Source: Candidatus Jordarchaeales archaeon
GTDB lineage: Archaea > Asgardarchaeota > Jordiarchaeia > Jordiarchaeales > Freyrarchaeaceae
DNA length: 27,075 nucleotides
Assembly (NCBI GenBank): GCA_038858525.1
Contig: JAWCFL010000024.1
Coordinates: 1-27,075 of the forward strand
Direction: 5' to 3'
Part shown: one piece after another, positions 8,969-26,716 of the stretch
Position numbering within the stretch: the stretch's first letter is position 1
How the letters are laid out: each line of letters opens with the position of its first letter
Made by a program: the position numbers and the translations under genes
Notes under the pieces: model-generated
What the model was told of the DNA's origin: nothing
The model's input: the letters and a program-made list of their open reading frames with translations, nothing else
The model's database searches: none

Positions 8969-10150
8969 GTGATGAAAATTTTCGCCTCCCTTCCACTGGA
9001 AGACATATGGAGAATCGTAGCAACGGAATTTACTGTTTCAGACGGGTTCCTGGACGATGAAGGTGTACCAACATTTATCTTACCCCCAGACCAAGAAACA
9101 AAAGAGCCATTCAAACGCCTCCTAGAAAAACTAAGGCTCTACAACCTTTTAGCAGTCATGCGATACGCTAGCCTAGACACAGCGTATACAAGCCAGCCGA
9201 ACTACCCTTTAAAAACGGAAAAAGTAATAATGATAAAGGTCTTCCCGATGGAGGAAAAAAGGAGAAGAAGCGTCTTAATCAATTTAGCCCTCCTCGCTGT
9301 GACAACGGTAACTATATTCTTCGCAGGATACTACTACGCCAATGAGTTTAATAGTAGTCTTCTCTTCCTATTCTTCTTCTTCGGGCTCCCTCTTACATCC
9401 TATCAGTCCCCAATAATCAACGCGGTATACTACACCCTTGCAATATACGGAATAATAGGGCTTCACGAAATGGCACACTACACTGTCTCAAAGATAAGAG
9501 GTGTTAAAGCGACGCTGCCATACTTTATTCCTGGATGGCCCTTCGGAACATTCGGTGCGCTAATAATGCAGGAAACACCAGTAGCAAATAGAGACGAGCT
9601 CTTCGATGTTGGAGTCAGTGGTCCAATAACGAGCCTCATAATAGCGGTCATAGCAACAATCGCAGGGATAATGATTGCACCCGTAATACCGTGGCCCACA
9701 GTATACGAAATGGAAGAAATTTCAAGGCAAATGAACGTCCAGCTACTCAGCCCACTACCCACACCTCTCCTATACGAACTAATCAGAGGAATAGTACCCA
9801 AACCCGCCTACGGAGTAGAATTACTACATCCTCTACTCTGGGCTTCATGGGCCGGCATGCTAATCGTTGCCCTCAATCTCTTTCCGATTGGACAGCTTGA
9901 TGGAGGACATTGTGCCCGTGCCGTGCTAGGCATGAGAACACATTACTTTGCATCGATCATTTCGGCTGTGGTCATGGCACTGTTGGGGTACTTCCCCATG
10001 GCGCTGTTGGCTCTTCTACTCTCCATGAGGGGGCACCCCGGGCCCCTAGACGACGTATCTAAAACAACTACCTCAAGAAAAATAGGATTCATCGTTTGCC
10101 TTATCCTAGCAATTCTCTGCATACCGCCATTAACTTTCTCGTTCTTTTAA
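8969..10150 (+). CDS. Site-2 protease (peptidase M50) family intramembrane metalloprotease
   Basis: HEMAH (HExxH), NLFPIGQLDGGH, GPITS, multiple TM helices, soluble N-terminal domain. Confidence 0.93.
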   Translation: MMKIFASLPLEDIWRIVATEFTVSDGFLDDEGVPTFILPPDQETKEPFKRLLEKLRLYNLLAVMRYASLDTAYTSQPNYPLKTEKVIMIKVFPMEEKRRRSVLINLALLAVTTVTIFFAGYYYANEFNSSLLFLFFFFGLPLTSYQSPIINAVYYTLAIYGIIGLHEMAHYTVSKIRGVKATLPYFIPGWPFGTFGALIMQETPVANRDELFDVGVSGPITSLIIAVIATIAGIMIAPVIPWPTVYEMEEISRQMNVQLLSPLPTPLLYELIRGIVPKPAYGVELLHPLLWASWAGMLIVALNLFPIGQLDGGHCARAVLGMRTHYFASIISAVVMALLGYFPMALLALLLSMRGHPGPLDDVSKTTTSRKIGFIVCLILAILCIPPLTFSFF

Positions 10151-10264
10151 ACCCGCCACTTAAGTCTACAAATAGAGGAAGCTGCGTGTGGAAAAGACAT
10201 ATTGAATAAAATCAAAATCGAATTTTCATTTATTTAATTGGTTAAAGGAGACGCTCAGCTTCGT

Positions 10265-11524
10265 TTATTTCTTTTTTATGGAGGCGAGGATGGCGGCTCC
10301 GTGTGGTACCACTTTGATTTTTGCGTTTTTCCCGATCGTTTCGAGTGCTTTTCTCAGCCCGTCTTCCACGCTTTCGATCGGTGTTACGTTAAAGACGTTC
10401 TCTAGTTCTTCTGCTGGGAGGGAGGACAGCATGAATATTTTTACTTTTTCTAGGGCTTTCGCCAGGTAGTAGGCTTTGTGTCCACCCATCTTGAAGTTGC
10501 TTTTCAGTCTTTTTTCCATTTCGTCTATGCTTAGTTTTTCTTTCATCCACTCGTAGAAAACTTGGTTTCCGACTCCATCTCTACATTCTGCTAGGAAGAT
10601 TACGCATCCTCCGTCTTTCACCATTGGGATTACGTTGTCTAGTGCTTTGTGTGCCTGGTAGAAGTCGATGTCCTTTGGGTATCCTCCGGCGCTCAGTATG
10701 ATTATGTCGGCGGGTTCGCTTTCAGCCTTGTAGAGGCTGTCGACAAGCTTTACGCCTTCCATGAAGGCCGCTTCAAGGTCTCCGCTGAAAGCCCGGACTA
10801 TTTCGCCCTTAGTGTTCTGGACCACGTTCACTATGAAGTCTGGTTTGGCTAGGCGGGCCGCTTCTGTCATGTCGAGGTGTACTGGGTTGCCGTCGAGCAC
10901 GCCACTCCTAGCGGCTGGGTGAAGCATCATGGCGTGGTTGAAGAGTATGGTTTCCCGCGCCGAGACACCTGGAAGTATGCTCTTCCGCCCACCTGTGTAT
11001 CCCGCATAGTAATGGAAAGTTATGTCGCCGGTGAGTATCTTTGCATCCGCCTCCGCCACTAGAGAGTTAATATAAATCCTGTTGCCGAAGGAGGTCTCAC
11101 CGAGGAAGGTTAAGTTGCCGTCGCAGTCATGGCTAACCCACTCATACTTGCTCCAAACGTCTTCTCCCAGTATTGCCTTCGCCTCGTCGTCTTTCACCTT
11201 CCTGTGAGTGCCGCAGCCAAAAATTATGGTTATGTCCCTGCTTGGGAAACCTATCTCGTCGAGTTCGCCGAGGAGGGCCGCCAGAATCTCGCGTGTCCTA
11301 GTGTCCCTCGTGTGGTCGTTCACCACTATGACGGCGTCACGCTTACCCCTCATCACCACGTGAAGGGGTGGACTACCTATCGGGTTCCTGATGCTTCTTT
11401 TGATTTCGCCCACCGGGTTGGCGCATCCCGGCACGTCTCTGACCTCGAGTGTACCGGCGAAGTTCTCGTCGGGCACTTCAAAACTCACTTCGGTAGAGCC
11501 GTACTTCAAAGCGAACTTAACCAA
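10265..11524 (-). CDS. larA: Nickel-pincer-dependent lactate racemase family protein (LarA), copy 1
   Basis: NDHTR, CGTHR, FHYYAGYTGGRKSILPG, FNH, GGYPKDIDFYQAHKA; start placed at TTG 11524 after a GGTGG SD. Confidence 0.9.
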   Translation of the reverse strand: MVKFALKYGSTEVSFEVPDENFAGTLEVRDVPGCANPVGEIKRSIRNPIGSPPLHVVMRGKRDAVIVVNDHTRDTRTREILAALLGELDEIGFPSRDITIIFGCGTHRKVKDDEAKAILGEDVWSKYEWVSHDCDGNLTFLGETSFGNRIYINSLVAEADAKILTGDITFHYYAGYTGGRKSILPGVSARETILFNHAMMLHPAARSGVLDGNPVHLDMTEAARLAKPDFIVNVVQNTKGEIVRAFSGDLEAAFMEGVKLVDSLYKAESEPADIIILSAGGYPKDIDFYQAHKALDNVIPMVKDGGCVIFLAECRDGVGNQVFYEWMKEKLSIDEMEKRLKSNFKMGGHKAYYLAKALEKVKIFMLSSLPAEELENVFNVTPIESVEDGLRKALETIGKNAKIKVVPHGAAILASIKKK

Positions 11525-11635
11525 GAAACCACCCAGAATACGAGTAACATGAACACCTATAAAAATTCTCCAGAACGACAAAAAAGATATATTTCGGGAT
11601 AAATTGACCTACAAACAGAAAGTTAAACCGGGAGA

Positions 11636-12112
11636 GTGAATGAGTTGTCACAGGCAAGCGTAAAGGCAATAGCGCTAGCTTTAACAGTAATAGTTGTCGC
11701 CTCCCTTGGAGCTGCGGGATACCTTTACTACCAGAACAATGTAGCACAGCAACAACAAAGACAATTGCTCACCCTCATCTTATACCACGACTTAACACAC
11801 GTAACAGTAATAATAGATTACGGAAACGGAACAAAGGAATCACATACAGTAACATTCACGCCCGGAATAACAGCACTTCAAGCACTAGAAGAAGTAGCGC
11901 TAGTCAACAAAACATACTGGCAATCCTATGACTCATACTTCATTGATGCTATAAACGGTGTTTGGAATAACGAGAACAACAATGGTTACTGGTGGATTTA
12001 CAATGTTAAACATTACTTCTCATCTGAGGTTGAACACCCGAGTGTAGGTGCGAATAAGTATCAGCTTTCCGGAGGAGACACTGTAATTTTTGTCTACCAG
12101 TTCTATGGCTGA
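11636..12112 (+). CDS. Membrane-anchored DUF4430 (transcobalamin-C-terminal-like) protein
   Basis: N-terminal TM helix, then ITALQALEE..FIDAINGV..YWWIYNV..VGANKYQLSGGDTVIFVY. Confidence 0.8.
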   Translation: MNELSQASVKAIALALTVIVVASLGAAGYLYYQNNVAQQQQRQLLTLILYHDLTHVTVIIDYGNGTKESHTVTFTPGITALQALEEVALVNKTYWQSYDSYFIDAINGVWNNENNNGYWWIYNVKHYFSSEVEHPSVGANKYQLSGGDTVIFVYQFYG

Positions 12113-12153
12113 GCGTTCAACATTATTTTTTATTTTTCTCTTTTATTAGAGAA

Positions 12154-12840
12154 GTGTTTTTGGGAAGGTATATTAGGATAATTTGTCCCATTATGACGGT
12201 GAGGGATGCTATAATGTATGTTGTTCCTAGGTCTGTTCGGGCTTCGCTTATCGGGGTTTTCACTGCTGCGGCTGTAGCTGGCACCTTTGCTCTTTCGCCT
12301 CTGCCTAACGTCGAAATTATCACGTTTTGCGCTTTTGTTGCTGGCTTTCTTTTTGGTAGTAGGGTCGGCGGCATGGTAGGCGCCCTGTCAATGTTTCTTT
12401 TTAGCGCTATTTCGCCTTATGGCTCAGGTTTAGGTTACCCTTTCCTGCTCCTTACTCAAGTCGTCGGGATGTCCATTGCCGGCTTAGTTGGAGGCTCACT
12501 CAGAAAAGTGCTCAGAAACCTCAAGTCGACTTCCCCCTGGTCCATGTATGTCTTTGGCGTGTCTGGAATCGCAGTCACTCTACTATATGACGCCATCACG
12601 ACTTTGGGTTTCATGTATCCCATGATTCCTTTCTCTGAGTTTCCCTCGGTTTTCGCTGCTGGAATTCCCTTTACCGTTGTCCACGTGGCGAGCAACGCTG
12701 TTCTCCTTGGCGTCGTGGCGCCATTCGTTGCGAGGTCTATTAGGTCAATGCTTGGAGAAGTTGAGGTTGAGTCTCACATCGCGGAAAAAAGGCTTCATGA
12801 AGTTGAAGGGGAGGATGCCGCCGAGACACGGCATGTGTAG
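12154..12840 (+). CDS. ECF transporter S component (CbrT-like, probably corrinoid)
   Basis: About 6 TM helices, LPNVEIITF motif, GIPFTVVHVASN; next to a DUF4430 gene; start uncertain. Confidence 0.75.
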   Translation: MFLGRYIRIICPIMTVRDAIMYVVPRSVRASLIGVFTAAAVAGTFALSPLPNVEIITFCAFVAGFLFGSRVGGMVGALSMFLFSAISPYGSGLGYPFLLLTQVVGMSIAGLVGGSLRKVLRNLKSTSPWSMYVFGVSGIAVTLLYDAITTLGFMYPMIPFSEFPSVFAAGIPFTVVHVASNAVLLGVVAPFVARSIRSMLGEVEVESHIAEKRLHEVEGEDAAETRHV

Positions 12841-12879
12841 GTTTTCCAAGCACATTACTCCTGCGGTGCCGTCTCTTAA

Positions 12880-12899
12880 TTGTTCCAGGCTGTCGAAAA
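12880..12899. repeat. TSD TTGTTC plus TIR at the tnpB 3' end
   Basis: TTGTTC|CAGGCTGTCGAAAA read directly. Confidence 0.9.
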
Positions 12900-13020
12900 A
12901 TTTGACTTCCTCTCTCAGCTCTGCTGGGTTCACCTCATCGGCATATAAGCCTTGACACCCCAGCTTCATTACGCTCACAGAGAGGCTTTCGGCGGAGCCT
13001 GAACCTCGCCACATCTTGAG
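12886..13020 (-). ncRNA. Putative omega-RNA scaffold overlapping the tnpB 3' end
   Basis: Position is as established for TnpB omegaRNAs; stems AGGCT/AGCCT, GGC-TTATAT-GCC, CAGC-AGA-GCTG; boundaries inferred. Confidence 0.5.
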
Positions 13021-13755
13021 CATGTTTAAACAAGCATTTATGTCCCTGTCTAAACCGCATTTTGGGCAGGTTTTCTCCATTGGAGCTATTTTTCCTCCGC
13101 ATCTGGAGCATATGCTGGAAGTTTTATGGGGGTTAAAATAAACCACATCAAAGCCATTCAACTTGTGCTTGTAATCAAGTAAGAATTGAAGTTTCCTGAA
13201 GCTCCATGTGTTCAGCCTTCGCTTGAGGTTCTTATTTCTTAAAGAGACTGGTTGGATTCTCTTACTAAACTTGTTGAACTTCTTAACCTTATAGTTTATG
13301 GCCTTCCTTATGTTCCTCAAGTCCTCCATGACGAGCGTTTTGCCTTTCGTTATCTCTGAAAGCCATTTTGTCAATTTGTGGAGCAAATCATGGACTCTGC
13401 GTTTTCTCCTCCCGGAATATTTAGCATAGAGGACCTTCTTAATCTTTGAATCCCCAATCCTTTGAATCCTTCTAAGCTTCCTTGAATAGGCTTCATGGAT
13501 TGCCCTAAGCTTGGAGGTATCTATCTTCCAGCAATTTCCAGAAGAATCAACCACTGTCACACTACACTCGTTAACATCTACAATACACTCATCTGGTCTC
13601 GTCAGATCGATCTCCTGTTTAAATGGAACTATTACCCAATTCATTCATTACAATCTCGCCTATCCTAAGCTTTCCCTCCCTCCAAAGCTTAATGAACTTC
13701 TCCTGGTAGCTCCCGAACTTCAAAGGGATTGTCAGGAACTCCCTTGGCTTGGCTG

Positions 13756-13781
13756 ATATTCTGAGCTTATATTCTGAGCTT
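13756..13781. repeat. 13-bp tandem duplication ATATTCTGAGCTT x2 inside tnpB
   Basis: 13756-13768 and 13769-13781 are identical. Confidence 0.9.
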
Positions 13782-14136
13782 ATCCCCTCGAAGTGCGTTA
13801 ACAACGGGCTGAACTCGATAAAAAGCTTCCTCGCTACTGGTCGCTCTCCTTTTGTCCTCTTCCAAGAGCTAAGCATGGAAACTGCAACCTTAATCGCCGA
13901 GATGAAGTATTGGCTGTTGTAGTCGTACCTGGCTTTAGCTCGTTGTAACATGCGTGGTGAAGGGCTTTGATGCTGAAGCTATTGGTCTCAAACGCTTTGT
14001 TCAGGCAGAAGTTGATCATGTCCCTGAAATCGTAGAGTAAGCGCTTTATCTCCGGAGTTATTTCATAACCGAACTTGACCGCTCTGATTATCTCTGTCAT
14101 TGATTTAACTATTAGTTAATTTATATTTAAACATCA

Positions 14137-14156
14137 TTTTCGACAACCTGTTGTTC
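14137..14156. repeat. TIR plus TSD TTGTTC at the tnpB 5' end
   Basis: TTTTCGACAACCTG|TTGTTC read directly. Confidence 0.9.
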
Positions 14157-14354
14157 TTTATACTTATGTTTTAACATTTAATGCTGTCCATGCATTCCGC
14201 TACGCGTTTTCTCATGTTTCGTTAACTTGGTCTTTAGATGTGGGCTCACAGCAAAGCTAGGAAACGACCCGGGCCTTAACTAATAACAGGGTCTTTTTCG
14301 GGTTTAATTCTAAATTTCTAAAATCCGGGAGCGGATAACGGCGTTAGGTTATTA

Positions 14355-14555
14355 TTAGTTTCCTGACATTAATACTAGGGCTCCGGTTTTGCATGCCATG
14401 GCACAAGTGAAGCATTCTCCTTTTTTGGCGCATTTGGAAACATCGACTTCAAATGGCTCTATTCTTGTTATGGCGTGTAGCGGGCATGAGTTCATGCATG
14501 ATGCACATTTACTACAGCGTTGGGGGTTTTTAAGTTGAGGGTAGTTGAACGGCAA
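14355..14555 (-). CDS. 2x[4Fe-4S] ferredoxin
   Basis: CSKCASCMNSCP and CAKKGECFTCAMACK; TTG start after GGTGG. Confidence 0.85.
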   Translation of the reverse strand: MPFNYPQLKNPQRCSKCASCMNSCPLHAITRIEPFEVDVSKCAKKGECFTCAMACKTGALVLMSGN

Positions 14556-14736
14556 AATGCCACCTTCAAGTTGTCAGCATGCATCACGGTAATGACAACT
14601 GCTTGCCGTTTTATTATAGTTTGCGCATTAGTGGAAACCTTTAAAGAGGAATTTCTCTTTCGGAAACGCGGTGGTTTGCATTCCTTTTGACGGCGTGAGC
14701 ATACCGACGAAAGGATACTTATTGGAGGTGCCTTCT

Positions 14737-15486
14737 ATGCCCGATATTTTCGATTTTCACACTCATGTTTACGATAGGGATTTTTGGTTTAGAGGTAAGG
14801 GGGTCTTACGGGCTTACGCTAAGGATTATTTTAAGTCTCCTGTGAGGCTTGCGGTTTCGCTTCCCCTGTTGGCGCGCTTCGAAAGCTGGATGAAGCCTCG
14901 TGAGCTTCGGCCGTCGAGCAGTAGTAGGCTTATTCTCTTCGACTTGGTCGGAAGTTTTTCTTCAATTTCTCCTTTGGGGTTGAAGCTTCACCCGCCTCTC
15001 CAGGACGTTTCGGCTTGTGATCCAGGGCTTGATGAGACATACGGGCTTGCCGAAAGGGAAGGGTGCCCCGTGGTGGTTCACTTCGGCTACTGTAGTGCTG
15101 GAAACTTGAGGTTCGCAGATCCCTTGAGCATAATTGAGGTGGTGGATAAGTTTCCAGGGTTAACCGTGGTAATGGCTCATATGGGAACTGGTAGGGGTAA
15201 CTACTGGGAAAACGCCAAGAGGGTAGCCCGTTGTTGTGATGGCGTTTACTTTGAGACATCGTGGGCGCCTCCGGGAGTTGTGAGGGAGGCTGTTGAGTTG
15301 TTCGGTGCTGAGAGAGTTGTCTTTGGGTCTGACTATCCGTTTAGGAGCGTGGAGGAAGAGCTTGACAAGGTGCTTTCTCTAGGTTTCTCTGACGAGGAGC
15401 TTTACAGGATTTTATGGAGGAACGCTGATGAGTTGCTTAGAGGGGTGATAAAACGTTCATCGTCCCTTATGGTGAGAGAAAAGTAA
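14737..15486 (+). CDS. Amidohydrolase-2 family metal-dependent hydrolase
   Basis: DFHTH, GLKLHP, VHFG, MAHMG, FETS, FGSDYP; ATG 14737 follows GGAGGTG. Confidence 0.88.
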   Translation: MPDIFDFHTHVYDRDFWFRGKGVLRAYAKDYFKSPVRLAVSLPLLARFESWMKPRELRPSSSSRLILFDLVGSFSSISPLGLKLHPPLQDVSACDPGLDETYGLAEREGCPVVVHFGYCSAGNLRFADPLSIIEVVDKFPGLTVVMAHMGTGRGNYWENAKRVARCCDGVYFETSWAPPGVVREAVELFGAERVVFGSDYPFRSVEEELDKVLSLGFSDEELYRILWRNADELLRGVIKRSSSLMVREK

Positions 15487-15488
15487 AG

Positions 15489-16643
15489 TTGAATGTTGAC
15501 GGAGTGCTTCTTAGCGGGGCGAGCGTAGCCCCCTCTTCGCCGTTGGGCGAACTTGTGGAGGAAAGTTTGAGGTTACCTGTTAAGTCAAAAAGGGTGGAGG
15601 AGCTTGATGGTGGAAGCGCCGTTATTCTTGTCGATGACTATACGCGAACAACTCCGGTGAGAGAAATTTTGCCGGTGGTTTTAGAGAGACTTAAGGTGGA
15701 TGGAGACGTCTCCGTGGTTGTAGCGTCTGGAACCCATAGGAAGATGAGTGAGGAGGAGCTGAAAAAGAAAATTGGTGAGGTATATTGGGAGCTCCCTGTT
15801 TTTCAACATGACCCAGATGAAAGACTGGTTTTTCTGGGTGAGACCTCGCGGGGGACGCCTGTATGGATTAATGAGCTTGCCGCTAGGGCCGACGTCCTCG
15901 TATCCATAGGTTCTGTGGCGCCTCACAACTTTTATGGGTGGAGTGGAGGGGCGAAGATCGTTTTGCCGGGAGTGGCAGGGAGGGAAAGCATATCGTGTAA
16001 CCATAAGTTGGCTGAGCATCCAGATGCGCGTCTAGGAAACCCGGAGAGCCCGGCAAGACTTGATGCTGAGGAGGCGGCGAAGAAGCTTAGGACCTTTTTC
16101 TCCATCAACGTGGTTAAGAACGTGAGGAGTGAGGTTGTCCATGTTTCTTCTGGAGATGTTGTTGCCGCTCATAGGGCTGCAGTGGAGGTGGCTATGAGAG
16201 TTATTGGTGTTAAAGCCCCCTGGGCTTCCGACGTGACAATAGTGAGCTCGCACCCTTACGATAATGACTTATGGCAGGCTGGAAAGGCCCTCTTCTCCGC
16301 TGCCAACATTACTAGGGAGGGAGGAACCATAATACTGCTATCCCCCATGAGGGAAGGCGTATGCGTGCACTATCCTCAATTCGAGCGCCTTCTTTCCTTA
16401 CCGCCTGAGGAAATAAGTAAAGAGGCTGCTAGTGCACCTCTGGAAGCCACTGTTGCTCTCCAAATAAAGAGGATGCAAGAAAGGTTTAACTGCATCATAA
16501 TTTCTGACGGAGTGACCGGAGAGCAGGCGGAGAGGATGGGGTTTAAGTGGTTTTCTTCGCCGCAGGAGGCGATTGACCAAAGCTTGAAGAGAAACGGAAG
16601 GGTGACTGTTATTCCCAACCAGCTTATTTACCCTTATCGGTGA
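15489..16643 (+). CDS. larA: LarA-family 2-hydroxyacid racemase/epimerase, copy 2
   Basis: VDDYTR, SGTHR, PHNFYGWSGGAKIVLPG, CNH, HPYDNDLWQAGKA. Confidence 0.88.
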   Translation: MNVDGVLLSGASVAPSSPLGELVEESLRLPVKSKRVEELDGGSAVILVDDYTRTTPVREILPVVLERLKVDGDVSVVVASGTHRKMSEEELKKKIGEVYWELPVFQHDPDERLVFLGETSRGTPVWINELAARADVLVSIGSVAPHNFYGWSGGAKIVLPGVAGRESISCNHKLAEHPDARLGNPESPARLDAEEAAKKLRTFFSINVVKNVRSEVVHVSSGDVVAAHRAAVEVAMRVIGVKAPWASDVTIVSSHPYDNDLWQAGKALFSAANITREGGTIILLSPMREGVCVHYPQFERLLSLPPEEISKEAASAPLEATVALQIKRMQERFNCIIISDGVTGEQAERMGFKWFSSPQEAIDQSLKRNGRVTVIPNQLIYPYR

Positions 16644-16649
16644 TAGAAA

Positions 16650-17810
16650 GTGAGGCGTTACAGGCTTTTGATGAGTGTGGGTCCAACGGAGTGCCCTCCA
16701 TACGTGTTAAAGGAGATGAGCAGACCAATCTACGACTTGAGAGACAGGGACCTCATTGAGATACACCTCGAAAACCTAGAATTGCTGAGGAGAATTTTCC
16801 ACTCAAGTGGTAAAATAATGGTGTTTGCCAGCTCGTCCTTCTCGGCGATGGAGGCGGCTATAGCTAACCTGGTTGAGCCGGGAGATCCGGTTCTCGTCAT
16901 CAATTCCGGGTTTTTCTCAGGGTTTATGGCTGAAATGGCTCAGATCCATGGGGGGCGCGTTTTTCTCACTCCGAGTTTCGAGGAGCAGCCGATCACCCTA
17001 GACGCCTTTGAAAATGCCCTGAGCGAATGTGATGCTAAAGTGGTCTGTATGGTTCATAATGAGACCGGGACGGGGCTTAGGACTCCTATAGAGAGACTTT
17101 GCCTGCTAGCTCATAGTTATGATGCTCTAACCGTGGTGGACGTAGTTTCCACGTTGGGCGGCATGAGGGTTGACGTGGACGGTTGGAGGATTGATGTCGC
17201 CTTCGCCGGCTGCCAAAAGTGCCTTAACGTTCCCCCAACACTGTCAGTGGCCTCAATAAGTGAAAGGGCTTGGCAGAGCTTCGAAAACAGGAAAAATCCC
17301 GTCAAATTATGGTATCTAAACTTTAAAACGCTAAAAATGGCGATTGGCGAAAAGCCAATTTTTCCATACACCTTCCCCATACACTCTATACTAGCACTTA
17401 ACGCCTCGCTAAAACATTTGTTGGCTGAGGGGCTTGAAAACGTTTACGAGCGACACAAGAGAGAGTCAACCGTGGCGAAGAGATTTGTAAGAGAGTTGGG
17501 TCTCTCGATGCATAACCGTTGCGAGGCGTGTCCCGGATGTGAGAATGAAGAGGCTTACTGTGCACTAACCGTAACGGCGTTCAAGACCCCGATACAAGCG
17601 ATGAAAGTCGTTGAGAAAATGGAGCATGACCACGGCGTAAGAATATCAGCTGGACTAAGAGAGCATCAAGAAGACGTCTTGAGAATTGGACACATGGGGT
17701 GGCAAGCACAACCACCATTCACTAAAGCTACTTTAACCTCTCTCGCATCCACACTGAAGAATCTAGGATTAAAGTTAAATTATGAGGAAGCCTTAGCGGG
17801 GCTTCTCTAG
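16650..17810 (+). CDS. Class V aminotransferase (alanine/serine-glyoxylate aminotransferase-like)
   Basis: GPTECP, VHNETGTG, VDVVSTLGG, GCQKCL PLP lysine, LRIGHMG. Confidence 0.88.
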   Translation: MRRYRLLMSVGPTECPPYVLKEMSRPIYDLRDRDLIEIHLENLELLRRIFHSSGKIMVFASSSFSAMEAAIANLVEPGDPVLVINSGFFSGFMAEMAQIHGGRVFLTPSFEEQPITLDAFENALSECDAKVVCMVHNETGTGLRTPIERLCLLAHSYDALTVVDVVSTLGGMRVDVDGWRIDVAFAGCQKCLNVPPTLSVASISERAWQSFENRKNPVKLWYLNFKTLKMAIGEKPIFPYTFPIHSILALNASLKHLLAEGLENVYERHKRESTVAKRFVRELGLSMHNRCEACPGCENEEAYCALTVTAFKTPIQAMKVVEKMEHDHGVRISAGLREHQEDVLRIGHMGWQAQPPFTKATLTSLASTLKNLGLKLNYEEALAGLL

Positions 17811-25401: not shown

Positions 25402-25452
25402 GGGTTAAGTAGGAATACATAGTGAATTGTTACTTTCGTTCCTACTTAACCC
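25402..25452. repeat. Perfect 14-bp hairpin GGGTTAAGTAGGAA / TTCCTACTTAACCC with a 23-nt loop at the tnpB 3' end
   Basis: Arms at 25402-25415 and 25439-25452. Confidence 0.85.
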
Positions 25453-26564
25453 TTCCCTCTCGATTAACTCATTGAGGGCTCTTTGAGTGAACCCTTCTCC
25501 CCGCATCTGAAGGTTCAAAACAGCTACAACGTCTCTATCCATTATCAGACCGCATTCTTCGCACTTCGTTATTCTGCCCCCATAGGAAGCCATGCTTCCT
25601 GAGCAGAGGGGGCAGGTTTTAGATGAGTTGGCTGGATTGACGTATTTTACTGGTAAGTCATTCCATTTCAGCTTGTATTCCAACATGAATTGAAATATCC
25701 CTTGCATTCCACTTTGATAGCTTTCGGTTCATTTTCTTTGAGCCGTTAAGGATTCGCCTCTTTATACCTTTCAGGTTTTCAAGTATTGCTCCGCAGCTCT
25801 TCTCCTTGAGCTCCCTCGCAATCTGCGTGGTTAGCTTGTGCATGAAGTCCTTGGCTCTATTCCTCTCACGCCTTGAATATTTCTTTAGCAACCTCTTGGA
25901 TGTTTCTGGCTTAAGCTTTGATAACCTCTGTATTCTCCTCCGCTTGTCCTCATAGACTCTGTGAATGTGGTAGAGCTTCTTCAGGTCGTAGCATCTAATT
26001 TTGCTATCAATTATGGCTGTTATGTTTGTTAGGTTTACGTCAAATGAAGCCCATTTATCCGCTTTAGGCTCAACATTCTTCTTAACCGTTATTATTATAA
26101 GCTCCCTCTCAGTTAGAATCAGCCCTCCAATCCTATCGAAATCTTCGTGAATCCAAGGATACTTTGTTAAATCGACCTCAAGATAACGTTTGCTCGGCTC
26201 CATGCTTATCCTCAGTATGCCGTTCCTGAAGCTGAAGAGCGTATTCTTGATGTAGACTGCCCTTTTAGTTATCTCAGGCTTACCTTCAGCTCTCCTCCCC
26301 ATTATATAGTGTTATCCAGCCCTTAACAAGCCCTATGATGGAGTTTATTGCTGAATCAACGTAGTGCTTTGAAAACCTCCAGTCTTTCAGCAACTCATCT
26401 CTAAGCTTCCTCCTATCCTCTCTGCTGAGGCTTAGATGGGCTTTACTTGAAAACCTTACATGGGCGAAAACATGCTCCAAGGCTCTCTGCTTAACCTTGA
26501 AGCATTCTTCGATTAAACCCCTTGGAGCTTCTACTGGGATCCTGTAGCTCTCAACTGCCTCCAT
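25405..26564 (-). pseudogene. tnpB: TnpB split by two +1 frameshifts in G runs (26297-26300, 25699-25701)
   Basis: SFDVNLTN, AILENL, CPLC..CEECG, DRDVVA; removing one G at each site joins the three ORFs. Confidence 0.9.
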
Positions 26565-26716
26565 AACCTCTCAACCCCACTCTTAGGATAACGGAGCTTA
26601 CCAGTCGGAAGCCTAACAGCCCTAATGATCCCCTTCTTCTGCCACTTCCAAAGAGTCTTAACTGAAACACCGAACTTCTTAGCAACCTCAGAGGGACGTA
26701 AGAGCTCTTCTTCCAT
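26531..26716 (-). CDS. 61-aa MerR-type HTH (IS607 TnpA N-terminal domain only)
   Basis: LLRPSEVAKKFGVSVKTLWKWQKKGIIRAVRLPTGKLRY; no resolvase catalytic domain follows. Confidence 0.8.
   Translation of the reverse strand: MEEELLRPSEVAKKFGVSVKTLWKWQKKGIIRAVRLPTGKLRYPKSGVERLWRQLRATGSQ

Follow-up and report, generated by a model that had tools for sequence, protein, structure and literature searches.

The contig JAWCFL010000024.1 of a Candidatus Jordarchaeales archaeon (assembly GCA_038858525.1), analysed here as a window of 27,075 nucleotides, carries on its minus strand a tnpB gene that lies within an element of 1,265 bp (positions 12886-14150). This element is almost certainly a real transposon, decayed and non-autonomous, with inverted ends and a target-site duplication. 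The fuller account, in which a fossil element containing only tnpB was moved by a DDE-type transposase acting in trans and has an omega-RNA at its right end, is one that we hold with reasonable confidence; movement of the window element by a DDE-type enzyme is, taken by itself, probable. The host genome (G000) comprises 2.09 Mb in 63 contigs and is 92.7% complete. The closest named protein belongs to a Jordarchaeales (Asgard) MAG, and the relatives at phylum level agree with an Asgard host. The features that define the boundaries, the arms and hexamers by direct reading and pattern search, are as follows.

12880..12885, no strand: target-site duplication TTGTTC (GAACAA in the tnpB orientation) beside the right end (RE), on the 3′ side of tnpB
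12886..12899, no strand: RE arm of the terminal inverted repeat, CAGGCTGTCGAAAA
14137..14150, no strand: left-end (LE) arm of the terminal inverted repeat, CAGGTTGTCGAAAA on the minus strand
14151..14156, no strand: target-site duplication TTGTTC beside the left end
14157..14160, minus strand: TAAA directly 5′ of the duplication in the tnpB orientation, tentatively in the position of a target-adjacent motif (TAM)

On the plus strand, positions 14137-14150 read TTTTCGACAACCTG, the reverse complement of CAGGCTGTCGAAAA with one mismatch (13/14), and the TTGTTC hexamers are perfect direct repeats, each abutting an arm. As a chance control, pairs of 170-nt windows placed 1.3 kb apart were examined at random loci of the same genome. 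Any inverted pair matching at 13/14 positions occurred in 32 of 4000 loci, and an abutting 6-bp direct repeat in none of the 4000. The arms and flanking repeats reported in a preliminary description of this DNA were thus borne out, as was its statement that no transposase gene lies inside the element. A coincidence of inverted and direct repeats around a degraded gene, with no transposon boundary at all, would agree with the finding that no further copy with these exact ends exists in this genome, where only a diverged copy on contig C1 was found besides. That possibility is refuted, and its probability negligible, given that the pair was seen in none of the 4000 random loci, that the boundaries are conserved in relatives, and that orthologous loci lack the element.

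TnpBs at 70-78% identity were found in Bathyarchaeia and hot-spring metagenomes, and further copies of the clade occur in G002, a genome of the same genus (45% identical), and on contig C1 of this genome (40%, dead). The left end of the family reads [C/T]A[A/G]GnTGTCG[A/G]AAA, followed by a TATA-like box, the palindrome TTAACTAATAGTTAA and the ATG; the right end reads ...GTCGAA(n)TTCGACAsCCTG. Six further independent insertions (TnpB identity 40-78%) share these termini and are abutted by differing repeats of 7-8 bp, so that the lengths over seven independent insertions are 6, 7, 7, 8, 7, 7 and 7 bp:

Window copy: direct repeat GAACAA, 6 bp
G002 copy: direct repeat TAAACAA, 7 bp
Contig C1 copy of this genome (L049, 114662-116023): direct repeat TGACTTT, 7 bp; inverted repeat 25/27 (CARGCTGTCGAAAGATTCGACATC)
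L018 copy: direct repeat AAATACTT, 8 bp
L020 copy: direct repeat TATTTAA, 7 bp
L074 copy: direct repeat GCTTTCT, 7 bp
L075-78 copy: direct repeat TTAATAA, 7 bp

The preliminary description had looked to other copies for ends at different positions without inverted repeats or duplications; the relatives instead keep the boundaries and the inverted arms, with flanking repeats that vary. Since the repeat sequences differ between copies, they represent duplicated targets rather than a fixed cleavage motif. A 13-bp repeat at L014 was dropped as a candidate duplication, as it sits inside the longer left end of that copy.

This variation bears on a rival view, in which the element would belong to the IS1341 type of IS200/IS605 like many others, a Y1 TnpA would have moved it in single-stranded form, and the apparent duplication would be a conserved target or cleavage motif that recurs at each junction. 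That group is where TnpB-only elements are commonly placed, and the window element resembles its members in having tnpB as single cargo, a right-end guide-RNA scaffold and a length of ~1.3 kb. Small palindromes lie at both ends (TTAACTAATAGTTAA on the left, GTCRAA..TTCGAC on the right), and with one copy alone, a duplication cannot be told apart from cleavage motifs that are the same on the left and on the right. Elements of the IS1341 group, however, have related subterminal hairpins at their two ends, a fixed target motif of 4-5 nt, and neither inverted termini nor a duplication. In the window element the left and right palindromes bear no relation to one another, the ends are genuine inverted repeats, and the flanking repeats vary between copies, hence no fixed motif. 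A search for Y1 transposases (PF01797) gave 0 matches in the 92.7%-complete genome. We consider an IS1341-type origin very improbable.

The orthologous loci in G001-G004 lack the element, which therefore represents an insertion. The orthologous intergenic region measures 81-290 bp in three same-genus genomes, compared with 1591 bp here, and in a fourth genome of the same family (G004) both flanks are present without the element. The gene on one side of the insertion codes for an energy-coupling factor (ECF)-type S-component (12154-12840), that on the other for an amidohydrolase (14671-15486). Several class-V aminotransferase/cysteine-desulfurase-like genes and a pair of LarA-like genes complete the neighbourhood (window 8969-17810).

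The internal features of the element are listed below.

12886..14100, minus strand: tnpB pseudogene, with an MJ0013-type N-terminal domain, RuvC and zinc-ribbon TNB, and two frame changes near 13935 and 13640
13758..13783, no strand: 13-bp tandem duplication inside tnpB (ATTCTGAGCTTAT, two copies), common to L012 and L013
14105..14131, minus strand: putative left-end promoter region, in which a TATA-like box TTTAAATATAA (14121-14131) precedes the palindrome TTAACTAATAGTTAA (14105-14119), with the ATG following closely at 14100
12886..13015, minus strand: candidate omega-RNA scaffold, overlapping the 3′ end of tnpB and ending exactly at the element boundary

Compared with an intact relative, the window tnpB is split over three frames (14100-13933, 13936-13640 and 13641-12886). 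It matches Cas12f1-like_TNB (PF07282, E 5e-14) and, weakly, OrfB_IS605 (PF01385), and the RuvC motifs DVNE, MED and DRDINA are retained in the alignment. The intact relative P0005 passes the NF040570 model with 105.6 bits (cutoff 100). The same insertion, at the identical locus, is also present in two other assemblies (L012 and L013). They are separated from the window copy by 11 substitutions and have small indels of their own, and their gene is split too. Because these copies carry differing indels in a split gene, the decay is neutral; the window copy is a dead fossil. The left-end palindrome TTAACTAATAGTTAA is kept in all relatives that have a left end, and the region around it and the TATA-like box may serve as a promoter.

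No stop codon occurs inside the window element, and the tnpB frame continues to 12745 in host DNA, reaching in antisense into the 3′ end of the ECF gene. This is a property of the family: in none of the copies does the TnpB frame stop before the element ends, and it crosses the RE arm to finish at whatever stop the host DNA offers. The RE arm, on the minus strand, encodes the last TnpB codons (...REEV-KFFDSL, of which KFFDSL is the arm part). The distance from the TnpB 3′ end to the transposon end is therefore 0 bp. The earlier claim that tnpB is bounded exactly by the inverted repeats held for the positions of the arms, and failed for the gene itself, which lies in three frames and whose reading frame passes the RE arm.

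The genome is rich in serine recombinases. At least 10 resolvase-domain matches were found, together with an IS607-type element of ~1.86 kb in ~20 copies, many at contig ends, that breaks the assembly at ~20 places. The window itself contains a remnant of this family on the minus strand at 25405-26715, consisting of a MerR-like helix-turn-helix piece of TnpA (~26715-26530) without a catalytic domain and a frameshifted tnpB (26302-25405); this is the proper description of what had earlier been called a second tnpB element. On contig C3 (90500-91770, L045), an intact-looking TnpB of 385 aa, 48% identical to the window-clade consensus, lies between IS607-type ends with no tnpA adjoining. Its right end is ...GGATAGTTA..TAACTATCCGACAACGG, and the tip (...CCGACAACGG) resembles that of the window element (...TTCGACAGCCTG).

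These findings would favour an IS607-family derivative that has no tnpA and relies on the abundant serine recombinases of the genome for movement in trans. The IS607-type copies of the genome, however, have GG at both junctions and neither an inverted repeat nor a duplication, in agreement with the published behaviour of IS607 elements (GG junctions, no terminal inverted repeat, no duplication; PMC6188088); the preliminary description, too, had said that they make neither inverted repeats nor duplications. The window element, with its inverted repeat and its duplication, shows no IS607 footprint. The seven clade insertions carry differing duplications of 6-8 bp, which serine recombinase exchange over a 2-bp core cannot produce. 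An IS607-type origin is thus improbable for the element as a whole. For its cargo, the homologous TnpB/omega-RNA module of L045 between IS607-type ends shows that a single nuclease lineage has switched carrier architecture, and homologous modules of this kind occur in two transposon architectures within this genome.

Evidence on the kind of enzyme came from a sister clade of TnpBs, 32% identical to the window-clade consensus and found in three other Asgard genomes. The sister-clade elements are ~1,292 bp long, with inverted repeats of 24-26 bp starting GGTTCTGTTACCTCTKCGG (26-bp ends, GGTTCTGTTACC). The first 9 bases of these ends are those of the IS431/IS257 inverted repeat, and 8-bp duplications at ≥7/8 identity were present in 13 of the 18 elements fetched. 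Shorter forms that arose by deletion (381, 733 and 966 bp) are known as well. Two of them are MITE-like (miniature inverted-repeat transposable element), keeping both IS6-like ends with most of tnpB gone (L099, G021:C1:763237-763617, 381 bp; L100, G021:C1:2135115-2135847, 733 bp), and neither has a clean 8-bp duplication.

The same ends also bound two larger transposons, one of 6.5 kb with a perfect 8-bp duplication TGGAGAAC (L060 5277-11830, G021:C1:549276-555829) and one of 4.4 kb with a 7/8 duplication (L052 650-5068). Each carries a gene for a DDE transposase (383-394 aa) that combines a SWIM finger and a zinc ribbon with a DDE_Tnp_IS240 domain (PF13610) and that scored 120.7 bits against the NCBIfam IS6 model NF033587, just under its cutoff of 125. 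Their cargo comprises an Eco57I-type restriction-modification methylase, HxlR-type and DUF5678 genes, and an unannotated gene pair. The ends are common to about a dozen tnpB-only cassettes. The sister clade is thus like the IS6 family in sharing GGTTCTGTT with IS431, in its 8-bp duplications and in ends held in common with IS6-like DDE elements. There is good support for the view that an IS6-like DDE enzyme mobilises the sister-clade cassettes in trans.

By analogy, the window element would most likely have been moved by a relative of those IS6-like enzymes whose own transposons have the sister-clade ends. Like IS6 elements (IS26, IS6100), the window element has a 14-bp arm, and its inner core CTGTCGAAAA resembles CTGTTGCAAA of IS6100. 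Its sole cargo is tnpB with the candidate omega-RNA scaffold. The cut at integration was staggered, giving a duplication of 6 bp in the window copy and of 7 bp in the majority of its relatives. On this account the footprint is that of a DDE-type enzyme acting in trans, and not of the Y1 or serine TnpA by which tnpB is usually moved.

A number of observations weigh against this account. No transposase was found between window-clade ends YAGGNTGTCGRAAA in this genome, in four Asgard relatives (including G002, G004 and G053), in two Thermoproteota genomes or in a viral collection, and a search of five genomes with the end pattern returned only the tnpB elements themselves. IS6-type (PF13610) and IS1595-type (PF12762) DDE domains had no match in this genome or its genus. 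IS6 elements have inverted repeats of about 14-20 bp with GG at the tip; the window element also differs from them in its tip (CAGG, compared with GG) and in its duplication (6 bp, or 7 in relatives, compared with 8). The TnpB tree leaves its deep nodes unresolved, and with them a common origin of the two inverted-repeat clades (the row G053_L040 in that tree is a wrong open reading frame on a very long branch, and is to be disregarded). Two relatives depart from a simple 7-bp duplication: L015 (10/11, with a diverged left end) and L019 (12/14, in a tandem-repeat region). The odd duplication of L019 is accounted for by its insertion in a host tandem repeat of ~70 bp (GTTAAATCRTCTAGGAAGCTTGAATAATTCAAGTAGCTTT..., around 1386-1500 and upstream of 177). 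Finally, the exact empty site could not be reconstructed, the orthologous intergenic DNA in G001-G004 being too diverged to align.

Two candidates that emerged from these searches were rejected. The viral collection gave single chance hits, and an 8.7-kb 'pair' in it (L270) had neither tnpB nor a duplication. A weak match on contig C5 to the Asgard IS6-like DDE protein, obtained by tblastn, was a chance hit to an acetyl-CoA synthase-like gene.

The window element, then, has no transposase gene of its own, and PF13610 had no match in G000 or G002, a difference from IS6 elements. The preliminary description had proposed a non-autonomous element with terminal inverted repeats mobilised in trans, and had pointed to an autonomous DDE transposase with the same ends. 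The boundaries, the differing duplications and the lack of an internal transposase uphold the first proposal; the DDE partner was searched for and not found for the window clade, and movement in trans by a DDE-type enzyme is thus something that we infer. Both copies in this genome are dead, which is consistent with a partner that was lost or never resident.

A missing DDE partner would also be expected if a non-DDE integrase made the staggered cut of 6-8 bp, either a Cas1-type, casposase-like enzyme (e.g. the Asgard aCas1) or an unrecognised transposase. The host is an Asgard archaeon, and aCas1-TnpB loci flanked by repeats have been reported in Asgard genomes (PMC10691335). Three Cas1 matches were found in the genome. 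These Cas1 loci, however, have no tnpB nearby and look CRISPR-associated, as judged by appearance without a family library. Casposon duplications are ~14-15 bp long, compared with 6-8 bp in the window clade. Casposons and aCas1-TnpB loci thus differ from the window element in a linked Cas1 and a long duplication, neither of which occurs here, and the gene that lies between ends of the sister-clade type codes for an IS6-like DDE enzyme rather than Cas1. A non-DDE integrase is an unlikely source of the insertion, although less so than an IS607-type or IS1341-type enzyme.

The right end of the element was analysed for an RNA fold. Over the last ~130 nt, 32 consensus pairs were obtained with 92.6% of cells paired, and compensatory changes occurred at 16 pairs compared with 2-7 for slid partners, figures that come from a fold derived from the same alignment used to score it, in a region that is also coding. 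The fold closes with a terminal hairpin, GUCRAA/UUCGAC, whose loop carries insertions in four relatives and whose 3′ strand is supplied by the RE arm. The RE terminus, ...TTTTCGACAsCCTG, is conserved at 10 loci. No Rfam match to the right-end RNA was found. The structure fits a putative omega-RNA scaffold that ends at the element boundary, in which case the duplicated target bases would form the start of the guide. The RE arm would then have two roles, coding for the end of TnpB and forming the 3′ end of the omega-RNA.

If the guide begins in this way, the sequence 5′ of the duplication would become relevant to target choice. Among 15 full-length sister-clade elements read in the tnpB orientation, 10 have TTR directly on the 5′ side of the duplication, compared with a background of 3.4% (P about 5e-12). 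The motif is one-sided, its mirror being present on the other side in only 1 of the 15. This asymmetry would be that of a TAM if TnpB acts on the uninserted allele. For the window clade, TAAN occupies the same position in four of the seven independent insertions, the window copy included, a small sample that gives only a hint of a TAM-like motif.

In a live copy, the transcribed guide would start with the duplicated target bases, and TnpB could cut the uninserted allele beside the motif on the left-end side. We infer both the kind of transposase and this homing role of TnpB. A more general proposal covers the MJ0013-type TnpB elements of hot-spring archaea in both clades, in which the nuclease would have been re-fitted to duplication-making transposons. 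The guide would start with the duplicated bases, the one-sided left-end motif would act as the TAM (TTR in the sister clade, perhaps TAAN in the window clade), and cutting of uninserted alleles would favour the spread or retention of DDE-moved cassettes. We offer this as tentative, and on present evidence it is rather doubtful.

Elements of this general kind have been described before. Six DDE-associated TnpB branches (DDE-1 to DDE-6) with inverted terminal repeats are known, as are solo TnpBs with ends like those of the DDE-associated branches, for which mobilisation in trans is presumed (Altae-Tran et al. 2023, PNAS, PMC10691335). A 2026 review names ISL2, IS630 and IS1031 as DDE partners of TnpB (PMC13565253). 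Like these DDE-associated and solo TnpBs, the window element has tnpB between inverted repeats and the TnpB 3′ end at the transposon end. It agrees with solo TnpBs in having inverted repeats with the TnpB 3′ end <250 bp from the end, and duplications of near-constant length and variable sequence. It differs in its MJ0013-type TnpB, in the ends of 14-27 bp YAGGNTGTCGRAAA, in the 7-bp duplication of its clade and in having no known partner. The window-clade family, its 7-bp footprint and the IS6-like partnership of the sister clade are not named in the main texts of PMC10691335 and PMC13565253. The novelty claimed in the preliminary description was nevertheless overstated, since DDE-associated and solo TnpBs between inverted repeats are already in print (PMC10691335; PMC13565253). 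The window element is a dead member of an uncommon but already published kind.

The arrangement also recalls that of Fanzors in eukaryotic transposons with terminal inverted repeats (Bao and Jurka 2013, PMC3627910), with a TnpB-family passenger nuclease, inverted repeats and a target duplication. In both cases the TAM may be provided by the duplication on the 5′ side or by the sequence flanking it. The host here is, in contrast, prokaryotic (Asgard), and the protein is TnpB-sized without Fanzor-type extensions; the likeness drawn here is one of arrangement. Methanocaldococcus jannaschii reportedly also has tnpB elements with inverted repeats, noted as early as 1996; a literature search for ISAMJ1 gave nothing on this point.

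For the organism itself, the window copy is dead and its sole consequence is one enlarged intergenic region. For the family, the results mean that archaeal 'solo' tnpB genes are not all relics of IS200/IS605 or IS607 elements, and that pipelines which file the window family there are in error. They also point to the portability of the module, as homologous TnpB/omega-RNA modules are carried by three architectures (IS607-type; 14-bp ends with a ~7-bp duplication; IS6-like ends with an 8-bp duplication), two of them in this genome. The TTR motif of the sister clade provides a testable handle on TnpB homing for transposons that leave duplications. If the nuclease has indeed been re-fitted to such transposons, the 7-bp duplication of the window clade would point to a transposase partner yet to be described, and the Asgard elements would offer a prokaryotic working model for Fanzor-type nucleases in transposons with terminal inverted repeats.

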